From a virus (Duplodnaviria; Caudoviricetes), in IMG/VR virus record IMGVR_UViG_3300038426_000018, positions 1 through 56,331 of that record: DNA of 56,331 nt. One strand, 5' to 3'. The position numbers and the translations under genes are program-made. Below are positions 1 through 56,331 of this stretch, in pieces. The notes under the pieces were generated by a model, which was not told where the DNA came from, did not search any database, and saw only the letters and a program-made list of their open reading frames with translations. Position 1 is the first letter of the stretch. Each line of letters starts with the position of its first letter.

Positions 1-252
1 CACAATAACGGACTTGTTCAACAGTATGCGGACTGGAAAATCAGCGGGTCCGCGCAACGTCATATTCGCGCCGAAGATGGAGGGATATTCGAACCTTTTG
101 AGAGCGCATGGTGGGCAAATCCTTATTCCAGCACATACGTCAACACCTTAACCGGCACGCCCGGTTTCAGCATCGCTTTTGCTGATTGCAGGACAGGCGG
201 ACAGGCGCGTTTCTATGCGCAGAGTTTCAGCGGATCCGCGACCGGCAAAAGA
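1..252. repeat. Terminal direct repeat (copy 1 of 56080-56331); circular assembly overlap
   Basis: Bases 1-252 match 56080-56331 except T127 vs G56206; the reading frame runs through the junction. Confidence 0.95.
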
Positions 253-1398
253 TTCATCGTTCAATCGAACAGCCATATTGGCACCGGAGGACACGCGCTA
301 ACCTGGTTGCCTGGCGACACAGCCGGCGAACTCGACGGTACCGGAACTTATGACGACACAGTGAGCGCCGCGCTCATAGGAACTGGCAGCGCGCCCAGCG
401 CAACAATTTATCTCGAGCCCGAACTTCCAGAAGAACCGTTTATGATTCCAGGGCCAGAGGGCAAAAAGGGCGACACTGGAGGCATAGGCCCCGCTGGCGG
501 TTCTGGCGTTCAAGGCCCCCCGGGAGTAGCTTTGATTTTAGAGCCGGATCCGTCTGAAGATCCAATGATGATTCCGGGTCCTATCGGAGCCACTGGCGCA
601 ACAGGAGCGGCCGGCGGACGCACTCAATTAACTCAGAACACAACTTACTATGTGCGCACGGATGGCAACGATTCGAACGACGGCAGCGCAAACAACTCCG
701 GTCATGCGTGGCTGACTCTGCAACATGCTATCAGTGTTTATCAGAGTTTGGACTGCAACGGCTACGATGTCACGATTTCCGTAGCGGACGGCACCTGGAC
801 GGCGGGGATGAATATTACTGGCAGACAGGGAGCCGGGAATTTATATCTCACAGGGAACGCGACCACTCCCGCGAACTGCGTTATCAACGCCACCAGCTCC
901 AACTGTCTCGGCGCTACCGGGCATCCGATGGGAAGCATCATATACTTCAATGGATTTAAGTTGACCACTACCACATCCGGCCAATGCATCTATGCCGCTG
1001 CGGGATCTCAGATTTACTATCATAACATTGAGTTTGGTTCTTGCGCGGGCTATCACATTCTGGTGCAGGGTGGCGCATCGCTTGTCTTGCTTGGAAACTG
1101 TAAAATTTCCGGAGGCGCCGGCAGTCACGTACTCGCCCAAACACAAGGAGGATGGTTCAACGGCACAAGCGGCGTCACTATAACCATAACTGGAACTCCG
1201 GCGTTTTCTCTGGCGTTTTTCTACATATCGGTACTCGCCCTTGCCGCTATTTCGAATACAGTAACCTGGAGCGGATCCGCAACCGGCAAAAGATACGTTT
1301 CAGATTCACTCAGCATCATAAATACCAATGGTTCCTCTTCAACCTATTTGCCCGGAAATGCTTCCGGTACAACTTCCAACGGAGGATTATATGTTTAG
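1..1398 (+). CDS. 3' part of fibre/spike protein (gene starts at 55477, about 666 aa joined): two beta-helix-like domains separated by a collagen-like linker
   Basis: Frame 1 is open from base 1 to 1398 and continuous with 55477-56331; Gly-X-Y runs (GPEGKKGDTGGIGPAG, GPIGATGATGAAG); YVRTDGNDSNDG...HAWLTLQHA...DGT domain start. Confidence 0.8.
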   Translation, partial: HNNGLVQQYADWKISGSAQRHIRAEDGGIFEPFESAWWANPYSSTYVNTLTGTPGFSIAFADCRTGGQARFYAQSFSGSATGKRFIVQSNSHIGTGGHALTWLPGDTAGELDGTGTYDDTVSAALIGTGSAPSATIYLEPELPEEPFMIPGPEGKKGDTGGIGPAGGSGVQGPPGVALILEPDPSEDPMMIPGPIGATGATGAAGGRTQLTQNTTYYVRTDGNDSNDGSANNSGHAWLTLQHAISVYQSLDCNGYDVTISVADGTWTAGMNITGRQGAGNLYLTGNATTPANCVINATSSNCLGATGHPMGSIIYFNGFKLTTTTSGQCIYAAAGSQIYYHNIEFGSCAGYHILVQGGASLVLLGNCKISGGAGSHVLAQTQGGWFNGTSGVTITITGTPAFSLAFFYISVLALAAISNTVTWSGSATGKRYVSDSLSIINTNGSSSTYLPGNASGTTSNGGLYV

Positions 1399-2248
1399 TG
1401 CGATTAGGCGATTGAGTGTTTTTGTGTTTCTGTCTCTGATTCTGATTTCAAGCGTTTCTTTCGCTCAAAGACAACTACTCAGCCAGAATACAACATTTTA
1501 TGTCCGCGTCGACGGAAGTGATTCCAACGATGGCTCGGCGGACGATCCGGCTGACGCTTTTCTCACTATCCAGCATGCAGTCGACGTGTACCAATCAATA
1601 GACTGCGCGGGATTCGATGTCACAATTCAGGTGGAAGACGGCGCATACACAAAGGGCGTCTTGATAACTTCTCGAGTAGGAGCAGGCAATTTGTACCTTA
1701 CCGGAAATCCAAACACGCCGGCGAATTGTTGGATAGCCGTTACCGGAGGCAATGCTATTTCCATTCAAGGTCACCCGCAAGGCAGCGTCGTGATTCTGAA
1801 TGGCTTCAAACTGAGCACCATTACCAGCGGTGAATGTCTTTTCTCCCAGGGCGGAGCCCAAGTCTTTTATAAAAACATCGAATTCGGATCGTGCGCAGGA
1901 TTTCACTTGAACGCCAACGAAGATGGGATTTTCTATTTAATAGGCCCTTGCAAGATTTCAGGCGGAGCGATAGCGCATATCGTCGCTCAAGTGGGCGGAA
2001 AATGGCTTAATATTGCGGGTCCGGTAACGATAACGATTGTGGGAACGCCCGCTTTTTCTCAAGCCTTTTGCTGGGCTGTCAATTTGGGTTTTGCGGGTAT
2101 AACCAATCAAATAACCTGGAGCGGATCCGCGACCGGAAAGAGATACGAATCCGATAACCTATCGGTTATCACTACATACAGCGCGGGAGCGAATTACTTG
2201 CCGGGCAGCATAGCGGGAACGACAATGTACGGCGGAGTCTACATTTAA
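1391..2248 (+). CDS. Stand-alone paralog of the fibre beta-helix domain with a predicted Sec signal peptide (285 aa)
   Basis: GGAGG at 1381, ATG at 1391; MFSAIRRLSVFVFLSLILISSVSFA|QRQ; remainder is colinear with the last domain of the upstream gene. Confidence 0.8.
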   Translation: MFSAIRRLSVFVFLSLILISSVSFAQRQLLSQNTTFYVRVDGSDSNDGSADDPADAFLTIQHAVDVYQSIDCAGFDVTIQVEDGAYTKGVLITSRVGAGNLYLTGNPNTPANCWIAVTGGNAISIQGHPQGSVVILNGFKLSTITSGECLFSQGGAQVFYKNIEFGSCAGFHLNANEDGIFYLIGPCKISGGAIAHIVAQVGGKWLNIAGPVTITIVGTPAFSQAFCWAVNLGFAGITNQITWSGSATGKRYESDNLSVITTYSAGANYLPGSIAGTTMYGGVYI

Positions 2249-2273: not shown

Positions 2274-2645
2274 ATGGCAGCAAACAAACAAATCAGATTC
2301 GGCCCTGTGGCCTTAGGGAATACAGCCGCAAACATCGTCAACCCGGCCCTGGGCGCTCTCACCGGCCCGGTGGGATTCACCATGACGCAGCTTTATGTCA
2401 TCTTGAAGCATATTCGCCTCGTCAACAAAACAGCCGGCGCTATCACCGTCTCTCTGTATGTCGGAGCAACCGCAGGCAGCGCGGCCGGAACTGAATTTCT
2501 TGGGACGGCGCTCTCTATCCCAGCCAATTCATATGTTGATTGGTATGGGGCGCTCAGATTGGATTCCGCAGATTTCCTAAGCGGACTAGCCAGCGCGGCA
2601 ACCTCAATCACTTTCGTAGCTGAGGGCGAAATCGGAATTTCGTAA
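2274..2645 (+). CDS. Small beta-rich virion/decoration-like protein
   Basis: Purine-rich RBS; 123 aa; structural-module position. Confidence 0.65.
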   Translation: MAANKQIRFGPVALGNTAANIVNPALGALTGPVGFTMTQLYVILKHIRLVNKTAGAITVSLYVGATAGSAAGTEFLGTALSIPANSYVDWYGALRLDSADFLSGLASAATSITFVAEGEIGIS

Positions 2646-2735: not shown

Positions 2736-3593
2736 ATGGCCGTCCAACAGATCAGCGAAAAGATGATCGGAACCGCAGACGGGACGAACGCGGTGTTCAA
2801 CACGTCGAAGGTTCCCAACGCGGACACGATCTCGATTTTCGTCGACGACGCGGCAGTCGCTATGGCTTCGGTGGACCCGAACGACCCGACGAAGTTCACC
2901 CTGGCTTCTCCTCCTGCGTCGGGGCATCGGCCGTTCGCGGTCTACCTGTTTTCCGCAGCGGACGACATCGACTTCGTCACGGTCGCACAGGTCAAAGGCA
3001 TCGGAGAGATAACGACCTCGAAAGACGACGGCCAACTGCAGGATCTCATCACGTATTTCGCGGAGTTTTTCAACGGCCAAACCGGCTGCCGCGTCCACAA
3101 CAGAATCTTGCCCATCACCGATGACCCGCCTTATGACGGACCCGGAGGGCAGAAACTTTTCTTGCGCAATTATCCGATCCGGTCGATTCAGACCGTCATG
3201 GTCAACGGCGTGACTCTCCCGATCGCTGCCGGCAGAACCGACGGCGGGGTGGTGATAACCAATAACGGCCGCGCGATTGCCCTGCGCCCTCCTGCAGGCT
3301 CGATGCAATGGAGTTTCCAATCGTACCCGTTGGGCATCGGGGCCTGGCAGTTCTCCCAGGGAATCGCGAACGTGTACGTGGACTACACCGCAGGCAACGA
3401 CGGGACGCCAGCGGACCTCTCGCAGGCCACGGCCGAGCAGATCGCGATCGAGTACAAGCGGAAAACCTATTTCGACATGAGGTCGAAAGTCCAATCGGTC
3501 GGAGGCGGGAGCGCAACCACGACCTATCGGGACTGGCACCTCACGCCGAAGATGCAGCGAATCTTGATGAAGTATTCGAGGCTCACCGTATGA
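2736..3593 (+). CDS. Head-tail adaptor (gp6/gp15-like) with N-terminal small beta domain
   Basis: YDGPGGQKLFLRNYPIRSI, VDYTAG..PADL.QA motifs; position after the head genes. Confidence 0.75.
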   Translation: MAVQQISEKMIGTADGTNAVFNTSKVPNADTISIFVDDAAVAMASVDPNDPTKFTLASPPASGHRPFAVYLFSAADDIDFVTVAQVKGIGEITTSKDDGQLQDLITYFAEFFNGQTGCRVHNRILPITDDPPYDGPGGQKLFLRNYPIRSIQTVMVNGVTLPIAAGRTDGGVVITNNGRAIALRPPAGSMQWSFQSYPLGIGAWQFSQGIANVYVDYTAGNDGTPADLSQATAEQIAIEYKRKTYFDMRSKVQSVGGGSATTTYRDWHLTPKMQRILMKYSRLTV

Positions 3594-4228
3594 TTTATTC
3601 GTTCTCGAACACCGACCAGATCCTCGTGGCGAAGTTGCGCGGGCGAGGCCCGATCCTGATAAAGGCCCTTTCGAACAAGTTGAACAACCTGGGCCTGCGC
3701 CTGCAATCGAAGATCCGGACCGAGAAGCTGGAAGGAGGAACGCCGCTGCATCGGAGGTCGGGCGAGCTCTCCCGGTCGGTGCAGTTCTTTCCGACCGAGG
3801 CCTCGGGCAGCCGGTTGGAAATGCGCGTCGAGGCGGCCGGGGCGACGGCCTTCTACGGAAGGATTCACGAGCGCGGAGGGCGGGGCACCTACGAGATCGT
3901 TCCGAAGAACAAACAGGCCCTCGCCTTCGGAGCCGGTGAATTCGCCGTGCCTCTGCGCGGGGGCGGGGTCGCTTCGAAGTATCAAATTTTAAAAGCCCTG
4001 TCGAGCCGCACCGAGTCGACCCACGCCTACGGAGCCAGGCTGGCGCGAAGAGCGCCGATGGCCGAATTCGAAGGCGGTCAGATGACTTCTTCCGGAATGG
4101 TTGTCGTGAAGAAAGTCGTCCACCCGCCGCTGCCGGCGAGGCCGTTCATGAAACCCGCGTACGAAGAGATGAGGCCCACGATCGTTTCGGAATTGCAGCA
4201 GACGACGAACGAGGCCCTGAAAGGTTGA
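3590..4228 (+). CDS. Neck/tail-completion protein (HK97 gp10-like)
   Basis: RSGELSRS, YGRIHERGG, HPPLPARPFMKPA motifs; ATGA overlap with the upstream gene. Confidence 0.75.
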   Translation: MIYSFSNTDQILVAKLRGRGPILIKALSNKLNNLGLRLQSKIRTEKLEGGTPLHRRSGELSRSVQFFPTEASGSRLEMRVEAAGATAFYGRIHERGGRGTYEIVPKNKQALAFGAGEFAVPLRGGGVASKYQILKALSSRTESTHAYGARLARRAPMAEFEGGQMTSSGMVVVKKVVHPPLPARPFMKPAYEEMRPTIVSELQQTTNEALKG

Positions 4229-4689
4229 CCGTGAAAGGCAAACCGAAAAGAGAAGATCTTTATCAGGCTTTGTTCAAGCACGTGTGTCAGACGCCTTGCC
4301 CCGACGGGCAATCCTGGGGAAAGCAGATCCGGGGATTCGTGGAGGTCGCGAACGTGGCTTCGGCGGACCAACCGGCCATGTGCCTCGCGAAAGGATTCGA
4401 GCGGGCGGTCCGCAGGCGAGAGGAAGGCGTCACCACTTGGGATTGGGTTTTCGGCTTGTGGATTTATTTCCGCGTCAACGCCACGGTCGTCGACGCCGAT
4501 TGGAAATTCACGGACGACGTGATGGACGCCCTCGACGCGAACCTGGCGGCCTTCCCTGCAGACATGCAGTCGCTCGGGGGGATCGTCAACGATTGTTTCA
4601 TCGAAGGCGAAATCGCGCCGATGCCCGACCCGGAACAAACTCAGCAGCAAACGTTGATCGTGCCGATCGTCGTCGTGACGGGCGACTGA
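4225..4689 (+). CDS. Putative tail terminator protein
   Basis: Size and position before the tail tube gene; QSLGGIVNDCFIEGEI C-terminus. Confidence 0.65.
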   Translation: MTVKGKPKREDLYQALFKHVCQTPCPDGQSWGKQIRGFVEVANVASADQPAMCLAKGFERAVRRREEGVTTWDWVFGLWIYFRVNATVVDADWKFTDDVMDALDANLAAFPADMQSLGGIVNDCFIEGEIAPMPDPEQTQQQTLIVPIVVVTGD

Positions 4690-4742: not shown

Positions 4743-5492
4743 ATGAAGCAATTCGGCATCGGTTTGGTGGTCGGAGTTCCTACCAGCGCAGGAAACCTCG
4801 CCACGCCTTCGTTTCCCCAACGGTTCGGCGTGATCAAGGAAGCCCAGGTGGAATTTTCCGGCAAGCTTGAAAAACTTTGGGGCCAGAACAAACTGCCGGA
4901 CGACATCGCGGCGTCCGACATGGAATTCAAAGGCAAGGCGGCCTTCGCGGAAATAGAGTCCGACGTCTACAACTCTTTGTTCTTCGGGGACGTCATTTCG
5001 ACCGGGTCGAAGAAGATGGTTTCGGACGAGGCCCCCGCAGCGGTCGCGGGCAACAACTTCACGGTCGCGAACGGCGGCAACAACTTCTATCAAAACTTCG
5101 GGCTGCGCTACGCGTCGACGGGCGTCACCCTCGAACAGGTCGGAGCGGGGAACGAGGCCACCGGCAAGTACAGCGTCAGCGCGACGGGCAAATACACGCT
5201 CGGAGGGAACGACGCGGGCAACAACGTGTTGTTCCTGGTGTCCTACGCCTACACGTCGACGGCCGGGAAAACCCTGTTGGTTACCAACCACCTGCAAGGG
5301 TACGGCCCGGTGTTCGAACTCTGGCTGTCGATGCCTTACCAGGGTGACAACGGCGTCCACCTGTTCCAATGCAAGTCGTCGAAAATGAGCCTGCCCCTCG
5401 ACAGGGCGAAGCACGTTTTCTCGGACTTCGAGTTCGAGTCGTTCCCGAACGCGGCCGGAAGCATCATGGAGTTTTTCCAAACCACCGCGTAG
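4743..5492 (+). CDS. Major tail (tube) protein
   Basis: AAAGGAG RBS; 249 aa beta-rich; position between terminator and chaperones/tape measure. Confidence 0.75.
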   Translation: MKQFGIGLVVGVPTSAGNLATPSFPQRFGVIKEAQVEFSGKLEKLWGQNKLPDDIAASDMEFKGKAAFAEIESDVYNSLFFGDVISTGSKKMVSDEAPAAVAGNNFTVANGGNNFYQNFGLRYASTGVTLEQVGAGNEATGKYSVSATGKYTLGGNDAGNNVLFLVSYAYTSTAGKTLLVTNHLQGYGPVFELWLSMPYQGDNGVHLFQCKSSKMSLPLDRAKHVFSDFEFESFPNAAGSIMEFFQTTA

Positions 5493-5500
5493 GAGGTCCG

Positions 5501-6736
5501 ATGGCGTTCACACCCAAGAAAACGTTGTTCACGCTGGCGGTCGACGATTACCCGAAGGAGATCACGGCGCTGACCTTCCCGATGCTGCAGGGATACGCGG
5601 AGAAGATCGGCGCCGACTTCCACGTCATCACCGAACGCCGTTTCCCCGATTGGCCGGTGGTCTGCGAGAAATGGCAGATCCACCGCTTGATGCAGGAACT
5701 CGGGAGCATGTGGGGCGTCTTCTTCGACGCCGACGCGCTGGTGCACCCCGAGACTCCGGATTTCACGGGCCTGCTGCCGTTGACCACCGTCGCGACGTGG
5801 AAACGGGACAGCGCGGGCCTGCGTTACAAACTCGATCGCCATTTCATCCGGGACGGCCGCTCGATCGGGACCTGCGGATGGTGTTCCATCGCCAGCTACA
5901 TGTGCCTCGACCTGTGGAAGCCGCCCGACGACCTGACGTTCGAGCAGGCGCTCGACCAGGTTTACCCCACGGTCGGGGAAGCCTCGAAAGGAATGGAGCG
6001 CAGCCACCTGTTGGACGACTATATTCTTTCGCGGAACATCGCCGAACGGCATTACGATTTCATCACCCTCGAAAACCTCCTCGGCAAACTCAGCCTGTTG
6101 AACATGAGTTTTGCCGTTCACGGTTACCTGATGAGCGTCGAGGACAAAGTGGACCTCCTGAAGACGACCCTTCGGACCTGGCGTTGCGGCCCGCCGTTGC
6201 CCGAGCCGGAAACGGTCTACAAGTCGCCCGGGATCGAAGGCTGGATCACGGACGAAGAGTTGCAGTGGTTGTTCGAACAGGCCCGGAAGCGCCGAAGCGT
6301 TTTGGAGGTCGGCTCTTGGTGCGGCCGGTCGACCCACGCCCTGCTGTCCGGATGTCCGGGGATCGTCATCGCGGTCGACACCTGGAAAGGTTCACCGACG
6401 GAACGGGCGGGACCCCACCGGAGGGCAGCCGAGGACCCGGAGTCGGTCTATTCCGATTTTATGAAGAACGTCGGGGCCATGCCGAACCTGCAGATCCTCC
6501 GCATGGATTCGATCGAGGCTTCCCGGAAGTTCGGGAACAAGTGCCTCGACATGGTGTTCCTCGACGGCAGCCACGAGTACGAGGATTTCAGTCGGGACCT
6601 GGCGGCCTGGATTCCGAAAACCCGTTTCATTTGCGGGCACGATCGGAACCAGGAAGGCGTTCCTTTGGGCCTGAAGGAAGCCGGGATTCAAATCTTGGAA
6701 GGGCCAGGGTCGATCTGGATAGGCGACCTGGTATAA
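5501..6736 (+). CDS. Glycosyltransferase-like (GT-A, DAD) domain fused to class I SAM methyltransferase (Methyltransf_24-like)
   Basis: AGGAGG RBS; YAEKIGADF..GVFFDADALV in N half; VLEVGSWCGRST, AVDTWKGS, DMVFLDGSHEYE, ICGHD in C half. Confidence 0.8.
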   Translation: MAFTPKKTLFTLAVDDYPKEITALTFPMLQGYAEKIGADFHVITERRFPDWPVVCEKWQIHRLMQELGSMWGVFFDADALVHPETPDFTGLLPLTTVATWKRDSAGLRYKLDRHFIRDGRSIGTCGWCSIASYMCLDLWKPPDDLTFEQALDQVYPTVGEASKGMERSHLLDDYILSRNIAERHYDFITLENLLGKLSLLNMSFAVHGYLMSVEDKVDLLKTTLRTWRCGPPLPEPETVYKSPGIEGWITDEELQWLFEQARKRRSVLEVGSWCGRSTHALLSGCPGIVIAVDTWKGSPTERAGPHRRAAEDPESVYSDFMKNVGAMPNLQILRMDSIEASRKFGNKCLDMVFLDGSHEYEDFSRDLAAWIPKTRFICGHDRNQEGVPLGLKEAGIQILEGPGSIWIGDLV

Positions 6737-6868
6737 GGCTATGGCTTTGCGTACCGCAGCACCGCTGCAAAGAGATCGTGACAAGGCGTGGGTGTTTACA
6801 TTACCCTCGTCCCCGACCTCGACAGCGACCGTTTAAAACGAAGTTTTCGTTCGGGAAGGAGAACGAGC

Positions 6869-7204
6869 ATGCGAACCAAGGAAATTGACATCGACGGGCA
6901 GAAATACAAGATCGGCGCACTGAGTTTCGACCAGGTGGAAGCCTACCTCGCGCCTATGCCGGAGAACCTGGAAACCGACGACGAGAAGGCGAAAGCCTAC
7001 AGGACGCGGGCGATCGAAATGATCTGCAGCGGACTGAACAACGGCATCCCGGAATCGAACGGGAACGTGCAGAAGGGTTGGGACGAAGCCCGGTTCCGCA
7101 AGGAGTGCGATTACGTGGTGTTCAACAAGCTGCACGACGAAATTCTTATCTTCTCCGGCCTGAAGCTGGAGACCCCGAAGCCCGAACTGCCGGGGGGGGT
7201 GTAG
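6869..7204 (+). CDS. Tail assembly chaperone (gpG-like)
   Basis: AAGGAG RBS; directly upstream of tape measure; ends on a G8 slippery run. Confidence 0.75.
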   Translation: MRTKEIDIDGQKYKIGALSFDQVEAYLAPMPENLETDDEKAKAYRTRAIEMICSGLNNGIPESNGNVQKGWDEARFRKECDYVVFNKLHDEILIFSGLKLETPKPELPGGV

Positions 7205-7521
7205 GCTCCGAAATCGATTTCGCCGACATTAGGAGCCGGATCGCCACGGCGACCGGGACGTCCTGGCCCGACATCGGCCGAATCCCCTGGCCCGACGTTT
7301 TGGCCTTGCATCGGCATTGGACCATGTTCCCACCGGCGCACGTGACCCTGGCCCTGATAATCGGAGCGGCCGGGAAAGCGACCTCGAACCAACCAGATCG
7401 GATCCGCGAGGAGGAGGACCGAGCGTTCGCCTCGTTGGGACCTGCGAGATCGTTCGATTCCCTGCCTCCGGTCGTCCAAGAGTTCCTGAAGGAAAACACC
7501 GGCAAACAGAAAGAGGTCTAA
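7192..7521 (+). CDS. -1 frameshift extension of the tail chaperone (gpT-like)
   Basis: CCG GGG GGG GTG TAG; the -1 frame is open to 7521, has no evident RBS/start and abuts the tape measure ATG. Confidence 0.7.
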   Translation, partial: GGGVGSEIDFADIRSRIATATGTSWPDIGRIPWPDVLALHRHWTMFPPAHVTLALIIGAAGKATSNQPDRIREEEDRAFASLGPARSFDSLPPVVQEFLKENTGKQKEV

Positions 7522-10056
7522 ATGGGAAGCACCGACGCCTTACGCATCTTGACCCAGATGGACATCGGCCCGATCCTGTCGGGAATGAACGGGGCCGCCG
7601 ACGCGGTTACTTCTGGAACCGGCAGGATGAACGCCGACTTCCAGAAAATGCAGGCTCAATTCGAGTCGACCGTCGCGGGCATGAGGGCCGAAGCCGAGCA
7701 GCTGCAGGCCCGAGTCGCGGAACTCGAAGCCCAACTCGCGAACGTGGGCAAGCGCGGGATCTCAAGCGCGACCGAAGCCCGACACGCCATGCGGGGCCTG
7801 GGCGAGGAAATAGGCATCCACATGCCTCGCTTCGTTTCCACCTTCCTGTCCTCCTTGGGTCCGGTCGCCACGGTCGCGGCCGCCGCCTTCACCCCGATCG
7901 CGATCGTCGGAATGATTCAAGTCCTCGGGCAGATCCCCGGCGCGATCGAGAAGGGCATCAGTTCGCTGCGCGGTTGGGACGCCGAAGCCAAGAAGACTTT
8001 CGAGGACTCGCAGGCCCACATCATCGCGATGACCCGCGCCATGATCGACGGCGCGAATTCCATCTCCAAGGCGCAGGCCACGGCCGGGAAAAGCGGCCTG
8101 GTCCGAACGGCCGCAGAGAAGGAAGCCCTCGACAAGGAGATCGCCAACTACGAGAAATACCAGACGACCCTGAAGGCCCAACTGTCCGCGTCTGAAAACG
8201 TGAAGAAGTCGATCGAGGTTTCCTGGAAAGGAATCGGCAGCGAAATGCTGCACGCGTTCGAGGGGATGCCCTCGCCGGAATCCTCGAAACTTTTCCTGCG
8301 GCCTTTCATGGGACCCGAACTCGACCAGGCGAAGACGAACATCGGAAACCTGAAGAAGCAGATCGAGGACCTCGACCTCACGTTGGTTCGGCTGCGGGCG
8401 CAGGCCAAGATCGTTCCGATCGAATCCGCAGGAGAGAGCGCCAAGGAGATCGACGAAACCAAGGACGCCAAGATCACCGCCGACCATCAGGCCGCGCTTG
8501 CCAAGGTCGAAACCGACAAAGCCGCGTTGGAAGAAGAACGACGCTTGAACAAAGTGACCCTGGACGAGTACGTCGCCCAGGCGAAAGCGATCGCCGCGCA
8601 GGAACTCGCGATCAACCTGGCGACGATCAACCAGAAACGCGCCCAGGCCCGCGCCGAAGAGAAGACGGTCGGGACTCCTGCAGGCCCGAAGATGGAAGCC
8701 CTCCGGGGCGAAGAAGTCGCGGCGCGGGAAACGACGGCCCGCGAGGTTCAGAAGATCGAAACGACGGCTGCGGCCGAGCGGATCACTCTGAACGAAAACG
8801 AAACCAAGGCCCGGATAGAAAACCAGAAGCGGTACCAGCTCGCCGTCGTCGCCGGCGAAGAGGAAGTGATCAAGGAACAGTACGCCGCGCACCAGATTTC
8901 GGCGGCGCAGGAGACGGCCCGGTTGACCGGCGTGGCCGACCAGAGGTTCGGAATCGAGAGGGCCGCGCTCGTGAAGGAAGTCGAGGAAGCGGGGAAGCAG
9001 GGCGAGAAGAAACGGGCGCTGTTGATAACCCTGCTCGGGCAACTGCAGACCCTAGAAGTGGAACACGCGAACTCTGTGCAGGCTATCAAGGCCGAGGGTA
9101 CGCGAAAGGAAATAGCAGACCGTCAGATCGCCGAAGAGATCGCGTTGCGCGACGCCGAGGAAACGGCCGCGATGGAGTTGAAGTACGCACAGTTCGTCGA
9201 CGCGCAGAAACTCAAAAGCCATCAGATCTCGATGAGCCAGTACGCGAAGGATCAGCAGGCCGCGCTCGACAAAAACTTCAACGACATGCGGACCGCCATG
9301 GACAAGTGGATCGCTTTCATGGAAGCCAACAACGAGAAGGGCACGCGGCAATACCAGATGGCCCTGGCGAAGCGAAAGGAACTCTACCAGAAATACATTC
9401 TGGATTCGGAGAAACTGACGGCCCAACTCAACGCGAAAGAGCAGGCGGCCATCCTTCAAATGCAATCGCTGTGGAACGGCGCGTTCACCCAATGGATCAC
9501 GGGGCACGAAACCCTGGCGAAGGCGGTCGTGAAAGCCTGGGACACGATGCTGGTCGGGATCGTCAACAACCTCCTGAAGATGCTCGAACAAATGTTGGTG
9601 AACTACGCCATGCAGAAAGCGGCTTCGAGTAAAAACATCCTGCAGCAGGCCAAGGAAGCGGCCGCGAAAGCCTACAACGCGATGGCGGGCATCCCTTACG
9701 TCGGCCCCGTTCTCGGCGCTGCGGCTGCGGCGGCCGTGTTCGCGGGCGTGATGGCTTTCGGTACGGCGGCGAAAGGCGCGGTGGCTCCCGAGGACATGAT
9801 GATGTTTCAGCACGCGAAGGAAATGACTTTGCCGGCGCACCTGTCCACGGGCGTCGAGGCCATGGTGAAAGCCTACACCTCCGGAGCGGGCGCGGGAGGA
9901 CCGGCGGCCATGCGAGGCCCCGCTCCCACGATCAACTACCAGCCCACGGTGTACGGTGAGAAACAGTGGGCGAAGAAAATGCTTCGTCAGCACTCCGACG
10001 AACTCGGTGCGATCGTCCAACAACTGATGCGCGACGGAAAAGTTCGCGCCTATTGA
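7522..10056 (+). CDS. Tape measure protein
   Basis: 844 aa, Ala/Glu/Lys-rich helical; AMAGIPYVGPVLGAAAAAA C-terminal motif; position. Confidence 0.9.
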   Translation: MGSTDALRILTQMDIGPILSGMNGAADAVTSGTGRMNADFQKMQAQFESTVAGMRAEAEQLQARVAELEAQLANVGKRGISSATEARHAMRGLGEEIGIHMPRFVSTFLSSLGPVATVAAAAFTPIAIVGMIQVLGQIPGAIEKGISSLRGWDAEAKKTFEDSQAHIIAMTRAMIDGANSISKAQATAGKSGLVRTAAEKEALDKEIANYEKYQTTLKAQLSASENVKKSIEVSWKGIGSEMLHAFEGMPSPESSKLFLRPFMGPELDQAKTNIGNLKKQIEDLDLTLVRLRAQAKIVPIESAGESAKEIDETKDAKITADHQAALAKVETDKAALEEERRLNKVTLDEYVAQAKAIAAQELAINLATINQKRAQARAEEKTVGTPAGPKMEALRGEEVAARETTAREVQKIETTAAAERITLNENETKARIENQKRYQLAVVAGEEEVIKEQYAAHQISAAQETARLTGVADQRFGIERAALVKEVEEAGKQGEKKRALLITLLGQLQTLEVEHANSVQAIKAEGTRKEIADRQIAEEIALRDAEETAAMELKYAQFVDAQKLKSHQISMSQYAKDQQAALDKNFNDMRTAMDKWIAFMEANNEKGTRQYQMALAKRKELYQKYILDSEKLTAQLNAKEQAAILQMQSLWNGAFTQWITGHETLAKAVVKAWDTMLVGIVNNLLKMLEQMLVNYAMQKAASSKNILQQAKEAAAKAYNAMAGIPYVGPVLGAAAAAAVFAGVMAFGTAAKGAVAPEDMMMFQHAKEMTLPAHLSTGVEAMVKAYTSGAGAGGPAAMRGPAPTINYQPTVYGEKQWAKKMLRQHSDELGAIVQQLMRDGKVRAY

Positions 10057-11714: not shown

Positions 11715-12181
11715 CCGAAGACGAGCTCCGAAAGAAAGTGATCGAAGAAGCCTTGACCTGGCTCGGGACTCCTTACCACATCGGAGCGAGGATCAAAGGA
11801 GTCGGGGCCGATTGCGCGACGTTCATCCTGCAGGTGTTCGTCGACTCCGGGATCTTCACCGACGAACGGCTCGGGAATTTCTCGGGCGATTGGTGGTGCC
11901 ACGCGACCGACGAGAAATACGCGATCCACGTTTTAAGGCACGCCCACAAGGTCCTCGAATCCGTCTGCTATCGGTCGCTGAAGATAAAGCCTGGGAGCAT
12001 CGTCCTCGGGAGAGTCACCAGGTCGAAGGTGCTGAACCACGGCGCGATCGTGATCGACTATCCGAAAGCGATCCATTGCATCGCCCCGCGCGTGTGCTTG
12101 ACGAACCTGTCGATCGACGCGCTTTGGTCCTACGTTCCCATCGAAGTGTTTGATCCTTTCCAGGAAAGGAAACCGGAATGA
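11711..12181 (+). CDS. Tail-associated NlpC/P60 peptidase
   Basis: WLGTPYH..IKGVGADC, NHGAIV, AIH motifs. Confidence 0.85.
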   Translation: MTEDELRKKVIEEALTWLGTPYHIGARIKGVGADCATFILQVFVDSGIFTDERLGNFSGDWWCHATDEKYAIHVLRHAHKVLESVCYRSLKIKPGSIVLGRVTRSKVLNHGAIVIDYPKAIHCIAPRVCLTNLSIDALWSYVPIEVFDPFQERKPE

Positions 12182-15100
12182 GTCTCGGGAAGGCAAACAA
12201 CGCGGCCGTTCGGCCTTCGGGCCTGGGAACCCAACTGCAGTCGTCGACGTACGGTTCTGTGATCCCGACCATCATCGGGCGAACGCGCACGACCATGTCG
12301 TTGATCTGGTGCAACAACCTGCAGCAGCACGGCGGCTCGGGCAAGAAAGGCAAAGCGGGAGGAGGGAAGAAAGGCAGCGCCACCACGTACACCGAGGCCG
12401 TGGACTTCCTCCTCGGGTCGAACCCGATCGTCAGCCCGCTGCAGATCTGGGCGGATCAAGATCAAAACTATCTTCTCAACTTCACGGCGCACACTTCCAT
12501 CTGCGTGTCGGGCGGTTCCGAAACGGTTTCGTTCGTCGACAACCGTTTCTATTGCATCCTCGGCGTGTCGCTCATGACGAAGTACGACGTCACGTTCGAC
12601 GATTACGGAGGAGGAGGGCCGCAGGAGTTCTCCAACCTCTTCGACCAAACCCCGCTTTGGAACGCGGCGACCGCAGGCCCCGACCCGACGAATCCGACGG
12701 CGTATCGCAAATGGCCCTTCTGTTTCTACTGGCTTCCCGGCTCCGGGCCTTCGATAAAAATTCCGGCGATCCCGCTCGGACTTTTCGACCCGTTCGTGAA
12801 CGACCCCGGATACATGCGCGTGACGATCTACTACGCTCAGTTGCAGCCGGGAAAACAAAGCCCGGTCGCGCAACTGCGCCTCGGGTTCGAGCCTCAACTC
12901 GGAGAAGGAAACGAGTACAGCGGGTTCGAGGACCAGCAACTCATCTATCCTCCTTTCGCCGGACTCGGATCTCCGAACTTGGACCTCGGCGGCGGCGGTC
13001 TCATTCCGAACATACGGCTCGAAGTCGTCGGGTCGTTTCCTTACTACAGCACCGGCGACGCCGAACACGCGGACATGGTCGAGGACATTTTCAAGGCCGC
13101 CCAAGCGCAGGCCGCCTACGGGTTGGCCCAGGCCCGCACTTCCCTGCAACGGGGCCTGCAGTGTTACGAGTTTCCGGGAGCCACGCAAAAGAAAGCCTAC
13201 GCTTGCGCCGACGGAACGAAGTCGCCCATGCAAGCGCCGGTGTTCGATCTCGGCTGCGGCTCCGGGGTCCTCCTCGCGGCCGCGAGCGCGGCTTCGGGTT
13301 GGAGTGCGGCCGCCACGATTTCAGACGACGCCGGACACGTTTGGAACGCGCTGGTGCCCGACCAGCGATCGGCGCAACGGCAGATCTGGTACGCCCTGCC
13401 CGACGACGTGGGGAACGCCGCGATCGACCCGGTGGCGTTGAACCTGGCGGGAGCGAACGCCGACTTGCAACTCCTCGAGATCTCGGGTTTAGATTCGGCC
13501 GCCCTCGACGCGTACCAGGTTTATCAGTCAACGGGATCCGGAGGGCAGACGAGCCTGACGGGTTCCATCACCACGACGAACGACCCGGGGAAGCCCGCGT
13601 ACATCGTCGCGTGGGTGTTCTCCGCGAGCCCGATGGACCCGACCAAGTGGAAGCCTCGAACCCCGTTGAAAGTTTTGATCGCTCCTCAAACCGGAAGCCT
13701 GCAGCGGAGCGATTACGCGATCGTGCGCAACCCCGGCACGTACTCGTTCACCTACGACCTCGCCGGAACGATGGGAGACTCCCAAGAGTGGACGTTGGTT
13801 CTCGTCGCCCTGAAGGCGACCCAACCGGCAAGCTACGCGAAGCCGCTGCAGAACATCCTCGACGACGACACGCTGGACCTGTGCCGTTTGCAATGCAGGG
13901 CGAACGGCCTGAAGGGAAGCCTTTGCATGGACTCCCAGAAGAAGGCTTCGGATTGGTTGGGAGACATCTACACGGCGATGAACGCCGCGCCCGTGTGGTC
14001 GGGCTTCCGGTTGAAATCCATTCCGCTCTCCGAAGTCTCAGCCGTAGGCAACGGGGCTGTATATACAGCTCCGACGGCGAGCGGACCCGTCGTGGACCTG
14101 GGCGAATCCGATTTCGTCGCGGACCCAGGCCAGCCGATGATCACGATCAAGCACAAGGCCCGCGTCGACTCTCCCAACCTCCTGCAGATGCAGCATCCGA
14201 ACCGCGCCAGCAACTACGTCGACATCAACACGTCGGACCCTTACGCCGGTTCGATCGCCAACTACGGGACGCGCAAGAGCTCGCCCGTGGTCAACCGGAC
14301 CGTTCAGGACGACACGATCGCGCGGATGCTCCTCGGGATCATGACTCGCCGGCAGAACGTGCTGCGCAACGATTACCAGTTCACCCTGCAGGGCCGTTGG
14401 AAGCTGCTGGAAGCGATGGACCTCGTCACCATCAGCGATTCGATCCTCGGGCTTTATTACTTCCCCGTTCGCCTGAAGGAAGCCAACGAAAACAAGGAAC
14501 ACGACGTCGAGTGCATAGCCGAGCCTTTCGTCTACGGCCTGCACGCGCCGATCGAGGCTTCCATCACCGACCACGTTCCTTACGATCCGGGAAAGCTGCA
14601 CGTGCCCGACAGCGTGAACGCGCCCGCCTTCATCGAGGCCGTCGCCGGAATGGAGGACTCGCCCACGGGTCCGGAACTCTGGATCGGGATCTCGGACGCA
14701 GATCCTTTGTACGGCGCGTGTCAGGTTTACGTTTCGACCGACGGCGGGACCTCCTACAAACTCCTGGGGTCCGCGATCGGCAACGCGGTCACCGGCGCGG
14801 TCCAAACCGAATGGCCCGGAGGACAGGACCCCGACACGACGAACGACCTGCACGTGGACCTCACCGAATCGCTCGGCGCTTTGCTCTCGTACGGGATCGC
14901 GGACGAGGACGCGTTCGTCTATCCTTGTTACGTCGAGGGCGGCTCGGCCGAGGTTCCTTACGAGGTCATGTCCTACGCGGTCGCAGATCCCACGGGCGCG
15001 AACAAGTACGCGCTGAAGGCCACCGGAGGAGGAAACCACCTTCGGCGCGGCGCGTTCTTCACGGCGATCGCGGACCACCCGGTCGGGAAGCGTTTCGTTT

Positions 15101-16731: not shown

Positions 16732-17294
16732 GCGACTGGATCGAACGCCAACCCGCAGGAGCGGTCGACAAACTTTGGGATTGCCTCGCCGGCAGCGGCG
16801 ACGGAATGACCCTCATAGTTTGCGCGGCGAATTCCCGGATCTGGGTTTCCACGAATCGCGGTATTTCCTGGACCGAAGTCCAACCGGCCGGGAACGTGTC
16901 GCGGAATTGGCACGCGGTGGCCTGCAGCGCGAACGGCGCGGTGATGATGGCGGCCTGCATCAGCACCAACGGCCGCCTTTACGTTTCCACCAACACCGGG
17001 TCTTCCTGGTCGGAAGTCCAACCGGCCGGGGCCGCCGATAAAAACTGGATGACCTGCGCCGTCAGCGGAGACGGCCAAACCATGTTGGCGGGAATATACA
17101 CGGGGCGGCTTTATCTTTCCACGAACCAGGGATCGAGTTGGTCCGAGGTTCAACCGGCCGGGGCCGTGAGCGCGATGTGGACCTCCTGCGCGATTAATTC
17201 CGACGGGACCAAAATGATCTGCTGCGCCCAGACGGGGCGCGTTTGGGTTTCCACAAATCAGGGCGGCGCGTGGACCGAGGCCGTTCCTTTTTAG
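16728..17294 (+). CDS. Asp-box-like beta-propeller protein, 4 blades (5' part of an interrupted gene)
   Basis: ATGA overlap; repeats of RLYxSTNxGxSWxEVQPAG; stops abruptly at WTEAVPF. Confidence 0.8.
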   Translation: MSDWIERQPAGAVDKLWDCLAGSGDGMTLIVCAANSRIWVSTNRGISWTEVQPAGNVSRNWHAVACSANGAVMMAACISTNGRLYVSTNTGSSWSEVQPAGAADKNWMTCAVSGDGQTMLAGIYTGRLYLSTNQGSSWSEVQPAGAVSAMWTSCAINSDGTKMICCAQTGRVWVSTNQGGAWTEAVPF

Positions 17295-17302
17295 AGGGCT
17301 AA

Positions 17303-19546: not shown

Positions 19547-19903
19547 ATGCCCGAGCACAAAAGAGCAACCGACGCGGAAAACGACGCCGTCGTGATCAAA
19601 CCCAAAACGGTAGGAATTTTCGGACTGATCGTTTCGACCGTCGCCATCCTGGTCGGAGTGGGAATCAGTTGGGGCGAAACGCACAACGAAATCGGAAATT
19701 TGCAGAAACAGTACGCGCAAACGGACGCGAATCTTCAGGCGCTGGCGAAAGAATTCCACGACCATCAAGCCACGGCCGACATCCACATGGACAAATCGTT
19801 CAAAGAGGACATGCTTCGACGCATGGACGGCCTCACGAATTTGCTCGTGGAACACATGGGCGTCAAACTGCCGCGAAGGGCCGTCGATCCTTCAGGGCGC
19901 TGA
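19547..19903 (+). CDS. Single-TM coiled-coil protein, putative holin/lysis accessory
   Basis: AGGAG RBS; TM GIFGLIVSTVAILVGVGISW; immediately before the lysin. Confidence 0.55.
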   Translation: MPEHKRATDAENDAVVIKPKTVGIFGLIVSTVAILVGVGISWGETHNEIGNLQKQYAQTDANLQALAKEFHDHQATADIHMDKSFKEDMLRRMDGLTNLLVEHMGVKLPRRAVDPSGR

Positions 19904-19965
19904 CGGTTTTTATTGCTTCGATCGTATCCGGCCGAGTGTATACTGCGCCGAAGGAGGTCAACCCA

Positions 19966-23083: not shown

Positions 23084-23293
23084 ATGAAAACCAAAACGCA
23101 AACCCAAACCCTCGGAATGAAACTAAAACGGTATCGAGATGAGCACGATTTAACGCTCGCGCAGGTCGCTGAAAAAACCGGCCTCAAAGTCCTCACGATC
23201 TGGCGTATTGAAAAGGATCGGGTTAAGCCGTTCGGACGCACGATCTATAAACTCGAACAAGCCTTGCCGGGATTCAAGGCCCTGCAGGAGTAA
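23084..23293 (+). CDS. XRE/Cro-like HTH regulator
   Basis: LKRYR.EHDLTLAQVAEKTGL...TIWRIEK. Confidence 0.9.
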   Translation: MKTKTQTQTLGMKLKRYRDEHDLTLAQVAEKTGLKVLTIWRIEKDRVKPFGRTIYKLEQALPGFKALQE

Positions 23294-55133: not shown

Positions 55134-55480
55134 AAACGTTTTTGTTCTCCGTGGGCCTGCAGCCGGTACCGGTCACGGTGACGACTCCATGCACCCACGT
55201 CGAGATCGTCGAGGACCCTTCCGTTTCGGGTTGGCCCACGGTCGACTACCAGGTCATCGGAACCGTTCCGGGTTCTCAGGCGATCCAGAAGAAAGGCGGG
55301 GTCCGCTTCGTTTTCCAACGAAGGATTCCCTGGAGTGCCGGCGACATCATCGGGTTCGTGCAGATCGTGGACCCGGCGCAGGCCGGAATCATCACGCAGT
55401 TGATTTACTTCCTGACGTTCCGTTTCCTGCAGTCAGGATCTAAAACCACCACGTTCCAACAGGTCGAGCAGACGGTATGA
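55130..55480 (+). CDS. Small virion protein paralog with hydrophobic insertion
   Basis: ATGA coupling; motifs shared with 54858-55133. Confidence 0.65.
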   Translation: MKTFLFSVGLQPVPVTVTTPCTHVEIVEDPSVSGWPTVDYQVIGTVPGSQAIQKKGGVRFVFQRRIPWSAGDIIGFVQIVDPAQAGIITQLIYFLTFRFLQSGSKTTTFQQVEQTV

Positions 55481-56331
55481 GCGACATCGACGTGATTAAA
55501 ATCGAGCACGCGGACGACTCCGAGATCGGAACGTTCGCCGCGCCCTTCACGATCAAAGAAGGATCTTTGATCTCGATGGAGATCGTCGACGACAAACTCG
55601 TCATCACCGCCAGCAGCGTTCCCTCTCCGGCGCCGGCTCGAACGCTGATTCAGACATACAAAAGTTATTTTGTCCGAACAGATGGCAATGATACCAATGA
55701 TGGTTCTAGTAACGACTCAGCTCATGCCTTCGCTACGCTTCAGCGAGCCGTCGACGCGGCAACCAAAGAAATCGATGCGGATCAATGGATTGTTCTTATC
55801 AACGTAGAGGACGGAACCTATAATGCCGGCGCTGTAATTCCGGATGTCCTCGGCGGCAGCATTTTAAACTTTATAGGAAATTGGCAGCATCCGGGAAATG
55901 TCCTCATTCAAACTGACGCAACGGCTTTCTATATTAATGTCAATCAGACAACCGTTACTTTTGACGGATTCAAAGTCGAAGCGAGCAATGGAGACGGTTT
56001 TGATGTCCAGGGCGGAGGGCCGGTGTTGCTCGAAGATTTCGAGTTTGGCGATGTTCCCAATGGGGCTCACGTCTACGTTCACAATAACGGACTTGTTCAA
56101 CAGTATGCGGACTGGAAAATCAGCGGGTCCGCGCAACGTCATATTCGCGCCGAAGATGGAGGGATATTCGAACCTTTTGAGAGCGCATGGTGGGCAAATC
56201 CTTATGCCAGCACATACGTCAACACCTTAACCGGCACGCCCGGTTTCAGCATCGCTTTTGCTGATTGCAGGACAGGCGGACAGGCGCGTTTCTATGCGCA
56301 GAGTTTCAGCGGATCCGCGACCGGCAAAAGA
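55477..56331 (+). CDS. 5' part of the fibre/spike protein (continues at 253-1398 across the circular junction)
   Basis: ATG at 55477 overlaps the upstream TGA; open to the window end; YFVRTDGNDTNDG..HAFATLQRA..VEDGTY; absent from the ORF track because it has no stop. Confidence 0.85.
   Translation, partial: MSDIDVIKIEHADDSEIGTFAAPFTIKEGSLISMEIVDDKLVITASSVPSPAPARTLIQTYKSYFVRTDGNDTNDGSSNDSAHAFATLQRAVDAATKEIDADQWIVLINVEDGTYNAGAVIPDVLGGSILNFIGNWQHPGNVLIQTDATAFYINVNQTTVTFDGFKVEASNGDGFDVQGGGPVLLEDFEFGDVPNGAHVYVHNNGLVQQYADWKISGSAQRHIRAEDGGIFEPFESAWWANPYASTYVNTLTGTPGFSIAFADCRTGGQARFYAQSFSGSATGKR
56080..56331. repeat. Terminal direct repeat (copy 2)
   Basis: Matches 1-252 with one mismatch. Confidence 0.95.

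Follow-up and report, generated by a model that had tools for sequence, protein, structure and literature searches.

A stand-alone third copy of a tail-fibre beta-helix domain with a signal-peptide-like leader in an uncultured peat phage

Introduction

Fibre modules of tailed phages are usually treated as cytoplasmic parts of the particle. The closest described relative of the gene analysed here (hereafter D3) is an unnamed fibre beta-helix module, annotated as 'tail fiber protein' in the Acidovorax phages ACPWH, ACP17 and AP1, which is 31-40% identical to D3 and which is also present in DUF2793-headed prophage fibres of Hyphomicrobiales. The best match in BFVD, the ACP17 protein A0A218M356 (E 7e-20, TM 0.82), has the same fold as D3. 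In this module the N-terminus is a cytoplasmic adaptor or a stalk, whereas in D3 it is a secretion-type leader and nothing else.

Exported beta-helix enzymes are known to work on nascent polysaccharide, an example being WceF of Pantoea stewartii (PDB 6tgf), which is described as secreted with cleavage of a Tat signal and as probably acting on exopolysaccharide of the same cell (PMC7949094). Like the predicted D3, WceF is a trimeric right-handed beta-helix (Z 13.9, rmsd 3.6, 217 residues aligned), but it is the product of a bacterial gene in an exopolysaccharide cluster, has 736 aa with extra N-terminal domains and carries a Tat rather than a Sec-type signal, and a search of the PDB by sequence detected no sequence relation between the two. 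VexL (PDB 6fi2), a periplasmic beta-helix that handles polysaccharide in transit, is also similar to the D3 model (Z 15.4, rmsd 2.8, 202 aligned), but this monomeric protein is a cellular capsule depolymerase of the pectate-lyase type and has only the fold in common with D3.

Among phage proteins, Llp of phage T5 is described (PMC9586334) as a phage-encoded periplasmic protein whose gene adjoins the receptor-binding gene and which prevents non-productive adsorption. The Llp/Cor lipoproteins resemble D3 in being phage-encoded, exported (predicted for D3) and located next to a receptor-binding gene. By contrast, Llp is a 61-residue lipoprotein that is unrelated to the receptor-binding protein and targets a protein receptor from the periplasmic side, while D3 has no lipobox cysteine of the Llp/Cor type at +1 (residues 1-71 hold no cysteine at all) and is paralogous to the fibre domain. 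Another phage example is Lys44 of Oenococcus phage fOg44 (PMC6116005), which is made late, carries a true Sec signal peptide and is exported ahead of lysis. Unlike D3, Lys44 belongs to the lysis module as a peptidoglycan hydrolase and is not a paralogue of a fibre. In the open-access full-text literature we found no description of a phage whose own fibre domain has a paralogue with a signal peptide.

Results

Anatomy of the locus

The window, that is, the whole stretch of 56,331 nucleotides that was analysed, comes from an uncultured peat phage. Its ends are terminally redundant, with positions 56080-56331 equal to positions 1-252, and thus the fibre gene is read as 55477..56079 followed by 1..1398, encoding 666 aa. 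In the list of open reading frames of the window, D3 is the + strand entry at 1391-2248, with a product of 285 aa. The features are collected in Table 1.

Table 1. Features of the fibre and D3 region, in positions of the window
Feature	Position	Strand	Remark
Fibre 5' part: ~54 N-terminal aa followed by the proximal beta-helix domain, D1 (starting at ~55639)	55477..56331	+	continues at position 1
End of D1 (fibre residues to ~319)	1..354	+	
Fibre linker: 8 G-X-Y triplets in a row (451-525), a Pro/Glu-rich repeat and a second run of 4 triplets (577-618)	451..618	+	read from sequence; weak matches
D2, the distal beta-helix domain (fibre residues 408-666), stop TAG 1396-1398	619..1398	+	
Ribosome-binding site GGAGG, 5 nt before ATG 1391	1381..1385	+	
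Signal-peptide-like leader of the D3 gene, codons 1-25 (RR, 12-residue hydrophobic core, SFA before Q26)	1391..1465	+	GC 0.385
Predicted mature D3, Q26-I285, without stalk or adaptor; stop 2246-2248	1466..2248	+	third beta-helix domain copy
ORF123 (123 aa, no assigned function)	2274..2645	+	low GC3 common to fibre, D3 and ORF123

The family of ORF123 co-occurs with collagen-like fibre genes in other phages. As a marker of the exported copy ORF123 was rejected, with the beta-helix domain present in only 1 of the 80 loci that have an ORF123 homologue and a leader-bearing copy in none of them (0/80).

D3 is a third paralogue of the fibre domain

D3 and D2 are identical at 148 of 259 positions (57%) without any gap (E 2e-105), while D3 and D1 are 36% identical over 236 aa (E 1e-33) and D1 and D2 are 33% identical (E 5e-31). 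As judged by these alignments, the similarity among the three copies is far beyond chance and D3 is a third paralogue of the ~260-aa domain of the fibre, standing alone and being nearest to the distal domain, as the first-pass annotation had proposed. This is also seen in a tree of 108 domain rows, where D3 is sister to the D2 of the same phage with an SH-like support of 97. Between D2 and D3 the codon identity is 65% at position 1, 72% at position 2 and 31% at position 3; since the third positions are saturated, the duplication is old. The two copies nevertheless have a foreign GC3 in common, from which phages with both a fibre and a leader-bearing copy are expected to exist elsewhere. The identity of the two copies is 46% at the predicted trimer interface versus 60% elsewhere, a difference that we regard as uninformative.

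The domain alignments start at R27 of D3, which corresponds to the R directly after the last G-X-Y triplet of the fibre. It is noted that the 'collagen stalk' attributed earlier to the fibre stands only in part: the G-X-Y runs are present, but they are short (8 + 4 triplets) and split by a Pro/Glu-rich repeat, and the collagen-like match is weak (E 0.0019).

The leader takes the place of the stalk

Residues 1-25 of D3, as read from the translation, show the textbook features of a Sec leader cut by signal peptidase I, with an n-region M1-R7 of net charge +2 (R6, R7), an h-region L8-I19 of 12 residues with a mean Kyte-Doolittle value of 3.05, and a c-region SSVSFA that has S at -3 and A at -1 and is followed by Q26. 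The leader was called from these features and from a simple, crude rule of our own making; D3 passes the rule, as does only one, lipoprotein-like, among the 33 other genes of the phage. In the AF2 model of D3, residues 5-20 form a detached helix with pLDDT ~50, versus 93-99 for the domain. The Sec-type leader claimed previously to stand in place of the stalk (RR, hydrophobic core, SFA|Q) is seen in the sequence, and its predicted cut, claimed to lie at the domain boundary, falls one residue before the position where the alignments begin. Cleavage would leave only Q26 ahead of the domain, so that no adaptor would remain. For a Sec substrate, the R at +2 past the predicted cut is less than ideal.

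A Tat signal has the motif S/T-R-R-x-F-L-K and a long, weakly hydrophobic h-region. In D3 the RR is present but is followed by L-S-V, the leader has 25 residues and the core is strongly hydrophobic; in the NCBIfam search no Tat model matched D3.

Start codon, expression context and conservation in the population

ATG 1391 overlaps the final codons and the stop codon of the fibre gene. Further in-frame ATGs lie upstream, at 1328 and 1358, and these were chosen by public gene callers, giving 306- and 296-aa forms of D3. Between codon 12 and codon 66 of D3 there is no in-frame ATG, GTG or TTG, and thus the domain cannot be made without the leader; the true start lying downstream of the hydrophobic stretch, which the first-pass annotation had raised against its own reading, is ruled out.

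The D3 gene is located in the late operon. Beside the gene, no promoter- or terminator-like site that would set it apart was found above the shuffled expectation, and a moron with its own promoter and terminator was rejected on this ground. No match to the integrase families PF00589 or PF00239 was found anywhere in the record, and lysogeny was likewise rejected. D3 is intact in all four sequencing runs examined (4/4), one of which (depth 4) has one difference at a third codon position, and the exact D3 protein was found on 12 contigs or more, its cluster holding no amino-acid variant. Among the 24 runs listed, none is an RNA data set that contains the sequence. Over seven variants the fibre has five variable residues and D3 has none (0), a diversity that is too small for the comparison to be meaningful.

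Predicted fold and assembly

The AF2 model of D3 (mean pLDDT 92.9) is a right-handed parallel beta-helix. Foldseek gave pectin methylesterase 5c1c as the best match (E 3.5e-4), and VIA-align gave Z 14-18 to many beta-helix chains, among them the glycoside hydrolase 5mqp_A (Z 18.0, rmsd 3.2, 238 aligned) and the tailspike of cyanophage Pam1 (Z 16.8). The model thus agrees with the beta-helix-like domain proposed earlier, and D3 is predicted to share its fold with the polysaccharide depolymerases of the pectin-lyase fold (tailspikes, PL/GH/CE8 enzymes). The fold by itself demonstrates no function, and neither catalytic residues nor a family profile were recognised in Pfam, NCBIfam or the PDB by sequence.

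When predicted as a homotrimer, D3 obtains a score of 0.95, versus 0.01 for the best of three controls; the mark set for this score was attained by 20 of 30 proteins whose solved structures are same-chain pairs and by 1 of 23 whose solved structures are single chains. At least 97% of the contacts were common to the trimer runs, with a partner pLDDT of at least 96, and the predicted contacts span residues 27 to 285, the interface running along the helix. The pass may reflect the likeness to solved tailspike trimers.

The domain family and its leader-bearing members

With D3 as the query, Pfam gave no significant match, NCBIfam and PADLOC gave none, the PDB searched by sequence gave nothing below E 0.13, and PHROGs gave only weak 'tail protein' matches (E 4e-4). 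Among 1922 candidate proteins, 374 belong to the D3 family at E <= 0.001, and among family representatives 7215 match at E <= 0.001 and 1400 at E <= 1e-30, with the matches covering residues ~25-285. In alignment A1, D3 keeps 40 of the 41 invariant or near-invariant columns, the sole exception being C for Y at 187, which is common to D3 and its own D2. Across phages with a wide range of hosts, metagenomic proteins and prophage proteins the domain shows 40-46% identity, a degree of sequence conservation that is unusual for a receptor-specific tip.

Relatives that bear a leader are rare (~2%) and scattered on the tree, with 9 changes for 10 rows; as read from this tree, leaders arose several times in the family. 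Two of these relatives, L164 and L074, lie in the tail modules of other phages, and similar xFA|Q or xHA|Q leaders are found on the independent relatives L091, L164, L048 and P0100. Leaders also occur on whole multi-domain fibres, namely P0142 (809 aa) and L074 (992 aa), the latter being encoded directly 3' of a J-like gene. In the whole fibres P0142, P0224 and P0172, which have leader-like N-termini, the N-terminal motif matches that of the leaderless fibre of the present phage. Stand-alone copies without a leader, of 257-300 aa, are common in the family.

When homologous loci were checked for the leader-bearing copy, the only homologous fibre cassette found (L165, of another phage, with a fibre 47.5% identical) had no third copy, which implies that the fibre works without D3. 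No close relatives of the phage were found by the adaptor protein or D3 in viral contigs, or by the capsid protein in genome contigs. Since the domain family occurs mainly in Pseudomonadota and the nearest capsid relatives infect Brevundimonas, the host is probably diderm. A Bacteroidota host, which was considered as several leaders end before Q, was rejected because the evidence from the family and from the capsid relatives favours Pseudomonadota.

Discussion

Based on the features of the leader, D3 probably leaves the cytoplasm as a free protein and is not built into the particle. As for its role, we tentatively favour, at rather less than even confidence, that D3 is exported and forms a free trimer in the periplasm, which binds or cuts the fibre's target glycan in the envelope. 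The pathway would be as follows. An old duplicate of the distal beta-helix domain of the fibre would have had its stalk swapped for a cleavable Sec-type signal peptide. D3 would be translated late in infection, coupled to the translation of the fibre, and would then cross the inner membrane and be cut after A25. The mature protein would fold in the periplasm, or outside the cell in a host with a single membrane, and form a free homotrimer that resembles a tailspike but lacks any part able to dock to the particle. This trimer would bind, and perhaps cut, the same class of envelope polysaccharide as the fibre tip, acting before and at lysis, so that the progeny would meet fewer traps on the dying cell, the debris and the matrix. 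D3 would thus be a receptor-destroying or receptor-occupying helper. It is noted that in a diderm host the Sec leader reaches the periplasm only, and the surface glycan would be out of reach until lysis. The first-pass annotation had read D3 as a secreted receptor decoy or depolymerase; its stand-alone copy, beta-helix and leader are found here, while the surface decoy becomes less direct in a diderm host.

The same anatomy would be expected if the exported trimer only bound the receptor glycan, or its lipid-linked precursor, and blocked further phages without catalysis. Such masking is consistent with the lack of a recognisable catalytic motif, as neither Pfam nor NCBIfam assigns a family and the PDB searched by sequence gives nothing below E 0.1, and T5 Llp (PMC9586334) is an example of a phage receptor blocker encoded beside a receptor-binding gene. 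Nevertheless, we consider this unlikely. A late-operon gene that lacks its own promoter would be expressed too late to exclude superinfection, and without an integrase there would be no lysogen to protect, which together argue against an exclusion expressed from a lysogen; moreover, a periplasmic protein would be unable to coat a surface glycan in a diderm host, and the PADLOC search gave no match.

The leaders on whole fibres P0142 and L074 mean that assembly or maturation outside the cytoplasm fits these relatives as well as a free helper does. The D3 trimer could then be a part of the particle that matures outside the cytoplasm and joins the capsid or the fibre after lysis, as an extra or alternative tip; the leader-like N-termini of P0142, P0224 and P0172 with the motif of the leaderless fibre, and the leader on the fibre that follows the J-like gene, speak for this. 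It is noted, on the other side, that cleaved D3 would be a bare domain with no docking adaptor and that the fibre of this phage has no leader, and we give this reading only a small probability.

It is also improbable, in our estimate, that D3 is not exported at all, its hydrophobic N-terminus being an uncleaved membrane anchor, a docking helix or simply tolerated and D3 being a cytoplasmic side branch of the fibre. The abundance of stand-alone leaderless copies indicates that free copies need no export, but the 12-residue core is too short to span a membrane, the polar stretch and the small residues at -3 and -1 are typical of a cleaved leader, so few of the other phage genes (1/33) pass the same rule, and the similar leaders recur on the four independent relatives. 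A programmed +1 frameshift near the fibre end, making D3 a third bead of the fibre, has hardly any probability: the D3 frame is open from 1328, overlapping the fibre frame by 71 nt, but the strong GGAGG and the ATG already account for this overlap, the fibre has the normal C-terminus of the family, as have nearly all aligned members, no slippery run is seen by eye in 1328-1398, and the hydrophobic leader would turn into an internal linker.

Returning to the exported helper, a wider and more doubtful proposal is that this phage and a scattered set of other uncultured ones export a paralogue of their fibre tip that acts from within the envelope, ahead of the burst, by stripping or occupying the receptor glycan, which would be an undescribed general late function. 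If true, such export would be, by analogy, the glycan-directed counterpart of influenza neuraminidase or of T5 Llp, made by duplication of the receptor-binding module and exchange of its stalk for a signal peptide, and the recurrence of independent leader fusions to this module would mark a general late function of tailed phages.

A conserved, co-translated copy with an export signal suggests that a binding module of the fibre also serves as a free, envelope-directed factor. This bears on how progeny escape trapping by debris and matrix and on the origin of free depolymerase activities. It bears also on the reading of 'tail fibre' genes of uncultured phages, where this very large fibre-domain family (7215 representative clusters) has neither a Pfam nor an NCBIfam model.

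The third copy of the fibre domain and its leader

The 666-aa fibre contains two ~260-aa beta-helix domains, a proximal one (D1) and a distal one (D2), with a linker between them made up of a Pro/Glu-rich repeat and two short runs of G-X-Y triplets, eight and four in number, so that the collagen stalk described in the first-pass annotation is present as G-X-Y runs but is short. The 285-aa product of the next gene holds the stand-alone copy (D3), which was claimed to be a third copy closest to the distal domain; this is borne out, as the identity of D3 to D2 is 57% (259 aa aligned, no gaps, E 2e-105) and that to D1 36% (E 1e-33). In D3 the alignment with D2 starts with R27, which corresponds to the arginine after the last G-X-Y triplet of the fibre.

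Upstream of this point, residues 1-25 begin with an n-region made positive by R6 and R7, continue with a hydrophobic core of 12 residues (mean hydropathy 3.05) and close with a polar segment whose final residues, S-F-A, stand directly before Q26. The Sec-type features and their boundary at the domain start, as annotated, therefore hold on the sequence, and a signal-peptide-like leader is a well-founded reading of these residues. AlphaFold places residues 5-20 in a helix of their own (pLDDT ~50), the block means of the adjoining domain being 88-99. Under our own simple leader rule (a positive net charge, a window of 11 uncharged residues with hydropathy ≥2.3, then small-x-small), the target passes together with only one of the 33 other phage genes, the lipoprotein-like 177-aa ORF.

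The ATG at 1391 overlaps the stop codon of the fibre and has GGAGG 5 nt upstream. Additional in-frame ATGs are present upstream at 1328 and 1358, within the fibre gene, and all three starts are in use in public gene calls. A true start downstream of the hydrophobic stretch, which would remove the leader, was looked for by a start-codon scan, and no ATG, GTG or TTG is in frame between codons 12 and 66 of the target; the domain's conserved N-terminal cap, from R27 on, thus cannot be translated without the hydrophobic stretch.

Genome and gene layout

Bases 1-252 recur at 56080-56331, the single mismatch (position 127) being a site that also varies in the population. The genome is hence either circular or terminally redundant, and its unit measures 56,079 nt. 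The source collection, IMG/VR, lists the 56,331-nt record as linear and 65% complete despite the repeated ends. All recognisable genes are on the + strand and, by PHROGs, in siphovirus-like order; no integrase or resolvase was found across the record. The fibre block lies in the head module, with the capsid genes on one side and the head-tail adaptor on the other, so that a head fibre rather than a tail fibre is conceivable.

Features of the record and of the fibre
Feature	Coordinates	Strand	Basis
Fibre, 666 aa	55477, across the record ends, to stop at 1398	+	
D1	fibre residues ~55-319		
D2	fibre residues 408-666		
Target (D3 with leader)	1391-2248	+	
ORF123, 123 aa	2274-2645	+	
Head-tail adaptor	2736-3593	+	PHROGs
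Neck protein	3590-4228	+	PHROGs
249-aa ORF at expected position of tail tube gene	4743-5492	+	unnamed PHROG family
Tape measure	7522-10056	+	PHROGs
1517-aa tail protein	12178-16731	+	PHROGs
Direct repeats in tail-protein genes	16733-18883		
Additional 54-nt repeat	18679-18883		
Lysozyme-like protein	19669-20442	+	PHROGs
177-aa ORF	22428-22961		
Large terminase	43332-45131	+	PHROGs
137-aa ORF	46359-46772		
Portal ORF	47991-50702	+	PHROGs
Protease or scaffold-like protein	51146-53110	+	PHROGs
Capsid protein	53230-54780	+	PHROGs
Small ORFs 5' of the fibre	54855-55130; 55130-55480		

Several other features were noted. The 137-aa ORF between terminase and portal has a twin-arginine-like N-terminus (RRNFF) followed by a hydrophobic stretch, with no family match, and the 177-aa ORF 3' of the lysozyme region, with a hydrophobic stretch and then S-S-C at its N-terminus, may encode a spanin or an exclusion lipoprotein. 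The direct repeats, in families of 43-84 nt, encode by eye repeated S-x-D/N-x-G-x-S/T-W-type units like BNR/Asp-box repeats. The two small ORFs resemble each other, with similar ends F-x-Q-V-E-Q (by eye only), and have GC3 normal for the phage.

The stretch 600-2700 occurs in 24 runs among those listed, all from metagenomes labelled as peat or wetland; 17 of the 24 contain half of its words or more, and five are possibly the source of the record.

The domain family and its fold

No significant family was found for the domain in Pfam or NCBIfam, and PHROGs gave only weak 'tail protein' matches. The beta-helix family without a Pfam or NCBIfam model is nevertheless very large: 7215 representative clusters match at E ≤ 0.001, 1400 still do so at E ≤ 1e-30, and a single protein can contain up to seven matched stretches. 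The N-termini are highly variable, DUF2793 and several fibre-type adaptors being among them. Many proteins of the family, 257-300 aa long, consist of one stand-alone copy preceded by only a few residues. The cultured-phage search gave six records, namely five of Acidovorax phages (four phages, one twice) and one of an uncultured Caudoviricetes; the annotation is 'tail fiber protein' in one of the former and in the latter, and 'tail protein' in one other. Matches in bacterial genomes are mostly from Hyphomicrobiales and other Pseudomonadota, and the nearest capsid relatives among GenBank phages are from two Brevundimonas phages (35% identity).

The domain is modelled as a right-handed parallel beta-helix (mean pLDDT 92.9). 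The best Foldseek match in the PDB is a pectin methylesterase (E 3.5e-4, TM 0.51), and VIA-align gives Z of 14-18 to many beta-helix enzymes and tailspikes (5mqp_A 18.0, cyanophage Pam1 tailspike 16.8, VexL 15.4, WceF 13.9); these matches establish the fold and not a function, and no catalytic residues were recognised in the domain. For residues 27-285 in three copies, a trimer is predicted in which the chains touch over the full length of the helix; it scores 0.95 versus 0.01 for the best of three controls, with contact agreement of ≥97% among runs and pLDDT ≥96. Among proteins of solved structure, 20 of 30 one-chain pairs and 1 of 23 single chains attain the mark for this score, and because tailspike trimers have already been solved, the pass may come from likeness to them.

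Origin of D3 and of the fibre block

The history of D3 was analysed with a FastTree of 108 domain rows, comprising all 13 phage-own or leader-bearing rows and a random 95 of 323 others (228 left out). D3 is sister to D2 with support 97, and its end branch is twice as long (0.53 vs 0.26). Identity of D2 and D3 is 65%, 72% and 31% at codon positions 1, 2 and 3, a difference by which the synonymous sites are judged saturated and the duplication old. D3 keeps 40 of 41 family-conserved positions, the identical protein sequence is present on at least 12 contigs, and the gene is intact and free of indels in all four sequencing runs examined, one of which (depth 4) has a single third-position difference, in a Cys codon as read from the coordinates.

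The fibre, D3 and ORF123, the next gene 3' of the target, have GC3 of 0.50-0.57, against 0.71-0.83 for most other confidently called ORFs, including capsid, tape measure, terminase and both flanking genes; the three-gene block 55477-2645 (across the ends) is therefore compositionally foreign to the phage. Other lower values, 0.52-0.60, are those of 23084-23985, 36792-37745 and the lysozyme-like ORF, as called. Because D2 and D3 share this make-up yet are mutually saturated, their duplication probably preceded the arrival of the block.

At least 117 relatives of ORF123 occur in viral contigs, with 52-76% identity among the 80 kept, and in 66 of 80 loci (L165-L245) a collagen-like ORF (≥6 G-X-Y) is on the same strand, which suggests that ORF123 is a partner of collagen-like fibres. 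In three runs other contigs match only the 33 bases 2274-2306, the start of ORF123, and differ on both sides, pointing to a conserved junction common to other phages of the same samples.

Leader-like N-termini among relatives

No close relatives of the phage were found among viral contigs (by adaptor protein and target) or genome contigs (by capsid protein). As to whether homologous loci keep the signal peptide, the single related cassette retrieved, L165 from a phage of 39% GC, has a fibre 47.5% identical over residues 55-666 and an ORF123 homologue (62%), and its two domain copies are both inside the fibre; a third copy, leader-bearing or not, is absent.

Leader-like N-termini are rare in the family. 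Among 255 fetched proteins five are leader-like by eye (P0224, P0172, P0142, P0200 and P0100, the last apparently cut at its start) and three by our rule; 80 metagenome loci gave two (L048, L074), and 81 ORFs of 79 bacterial genome loci another two (L091, L164). On the 108-row tree the leader label requires nine changes for ten rows, and because many forks are weakly supported we say only that leaders would have arisen in several independent origins. The settings are diverse. In the prophage L164 a 324-aa copy is located between tail genes and endolysin. In the Hyphomicrobiales MAG locus L091 a 312-aa leader-bearing copy (3737-4675; AFA before Q, two cysteines flanking a fibre-type motif) has AcrB-type efflux and MFS transporter genes as its neighbours and none from phages close by, and may be domesticated. 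In the lambda-like tail module L074, a 992-aa fibre (5808-8786) directly 3' of a J-like central fibre gene has an RR-type signal-peptide-like N-terminus (AWS before A) and ends C-terminally in the same beta-helix domain. In P0142 (809 aa, two domains), P0224 and P0172 the leader directly precedes the N-terminal motif that also begins the leaderless fibre of our phage.

Proposed export and function of the third copy

Each part is already known, be it the beta-helix module of phage fibres, the Sec leader or the exported glycan enzymes with a beta-helix fold. Their combination in a co-translated, stalk-less, leader-bearing paralogue of a phage's own fibre tip appears undescribed: on the evidence of titles, openings of abstracts and selected passages, no description of such a paralogue was found among the papers listed by full-text searches of open-access literature.

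The target is probably exported. What the exported protein would do is less certain. It could simply mask the receptor, as the decoy reading of the first-pass annotation has it, and the want of recognised catalytic residues counts against our own reading, set out below, of action on the glycan. It could also join the particle after lysis, and the whole fibres with leaders in relatives equally fit a maturation of fibres outside the cytoplasm. Alternatively, the hydrophobic N-terminus, despite its Sec-type features, may be uncleaved or unused; an arginine at +2 after the cut is not ideal for export, which also speaks against our reading, as does the fact that the L165 cassette manages without a third copy. 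A frameshift fusion of D3 to the fibre, whose stop codon the target's ATG overlaps, is very unlikely.

Known systems serve as working parallels for our reading. The exported beta-helix enzyme WceF acts on the cell's own polysaccharide (PMC7949094), and the periplasmic Llp of phage T5, encoded next to the receptor-binding gene, prevents non-productive adsorption (PMC9586334). Both the range of the family and the relatives found for the capsid point to a diderm host, in which the exported protein would end up in the periplasm. VexL is a further working parallel, as another exported beta-helix enzyme that acts on the cell's own polysaccharide.

We tentatively favour, as one possibility among these, an exported free trimer acting on the glycan recognised by the fibre. 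The target would be translated together with the fibre, late in infection, and carried by its leader across the inner membrane; once cut behind A25, it would be left as a bare domain, able to trimerise but lacking anything to dock it to a particle. The gain of a signal peptide over release at lysis would be access to the envelope before the burst, and it is for this reason that we favour action, by binding or cleavage, on the polysaccharide recognised by the fibre or on its precursors in transit, by which fewer progeny may be lost on debris and matrix.
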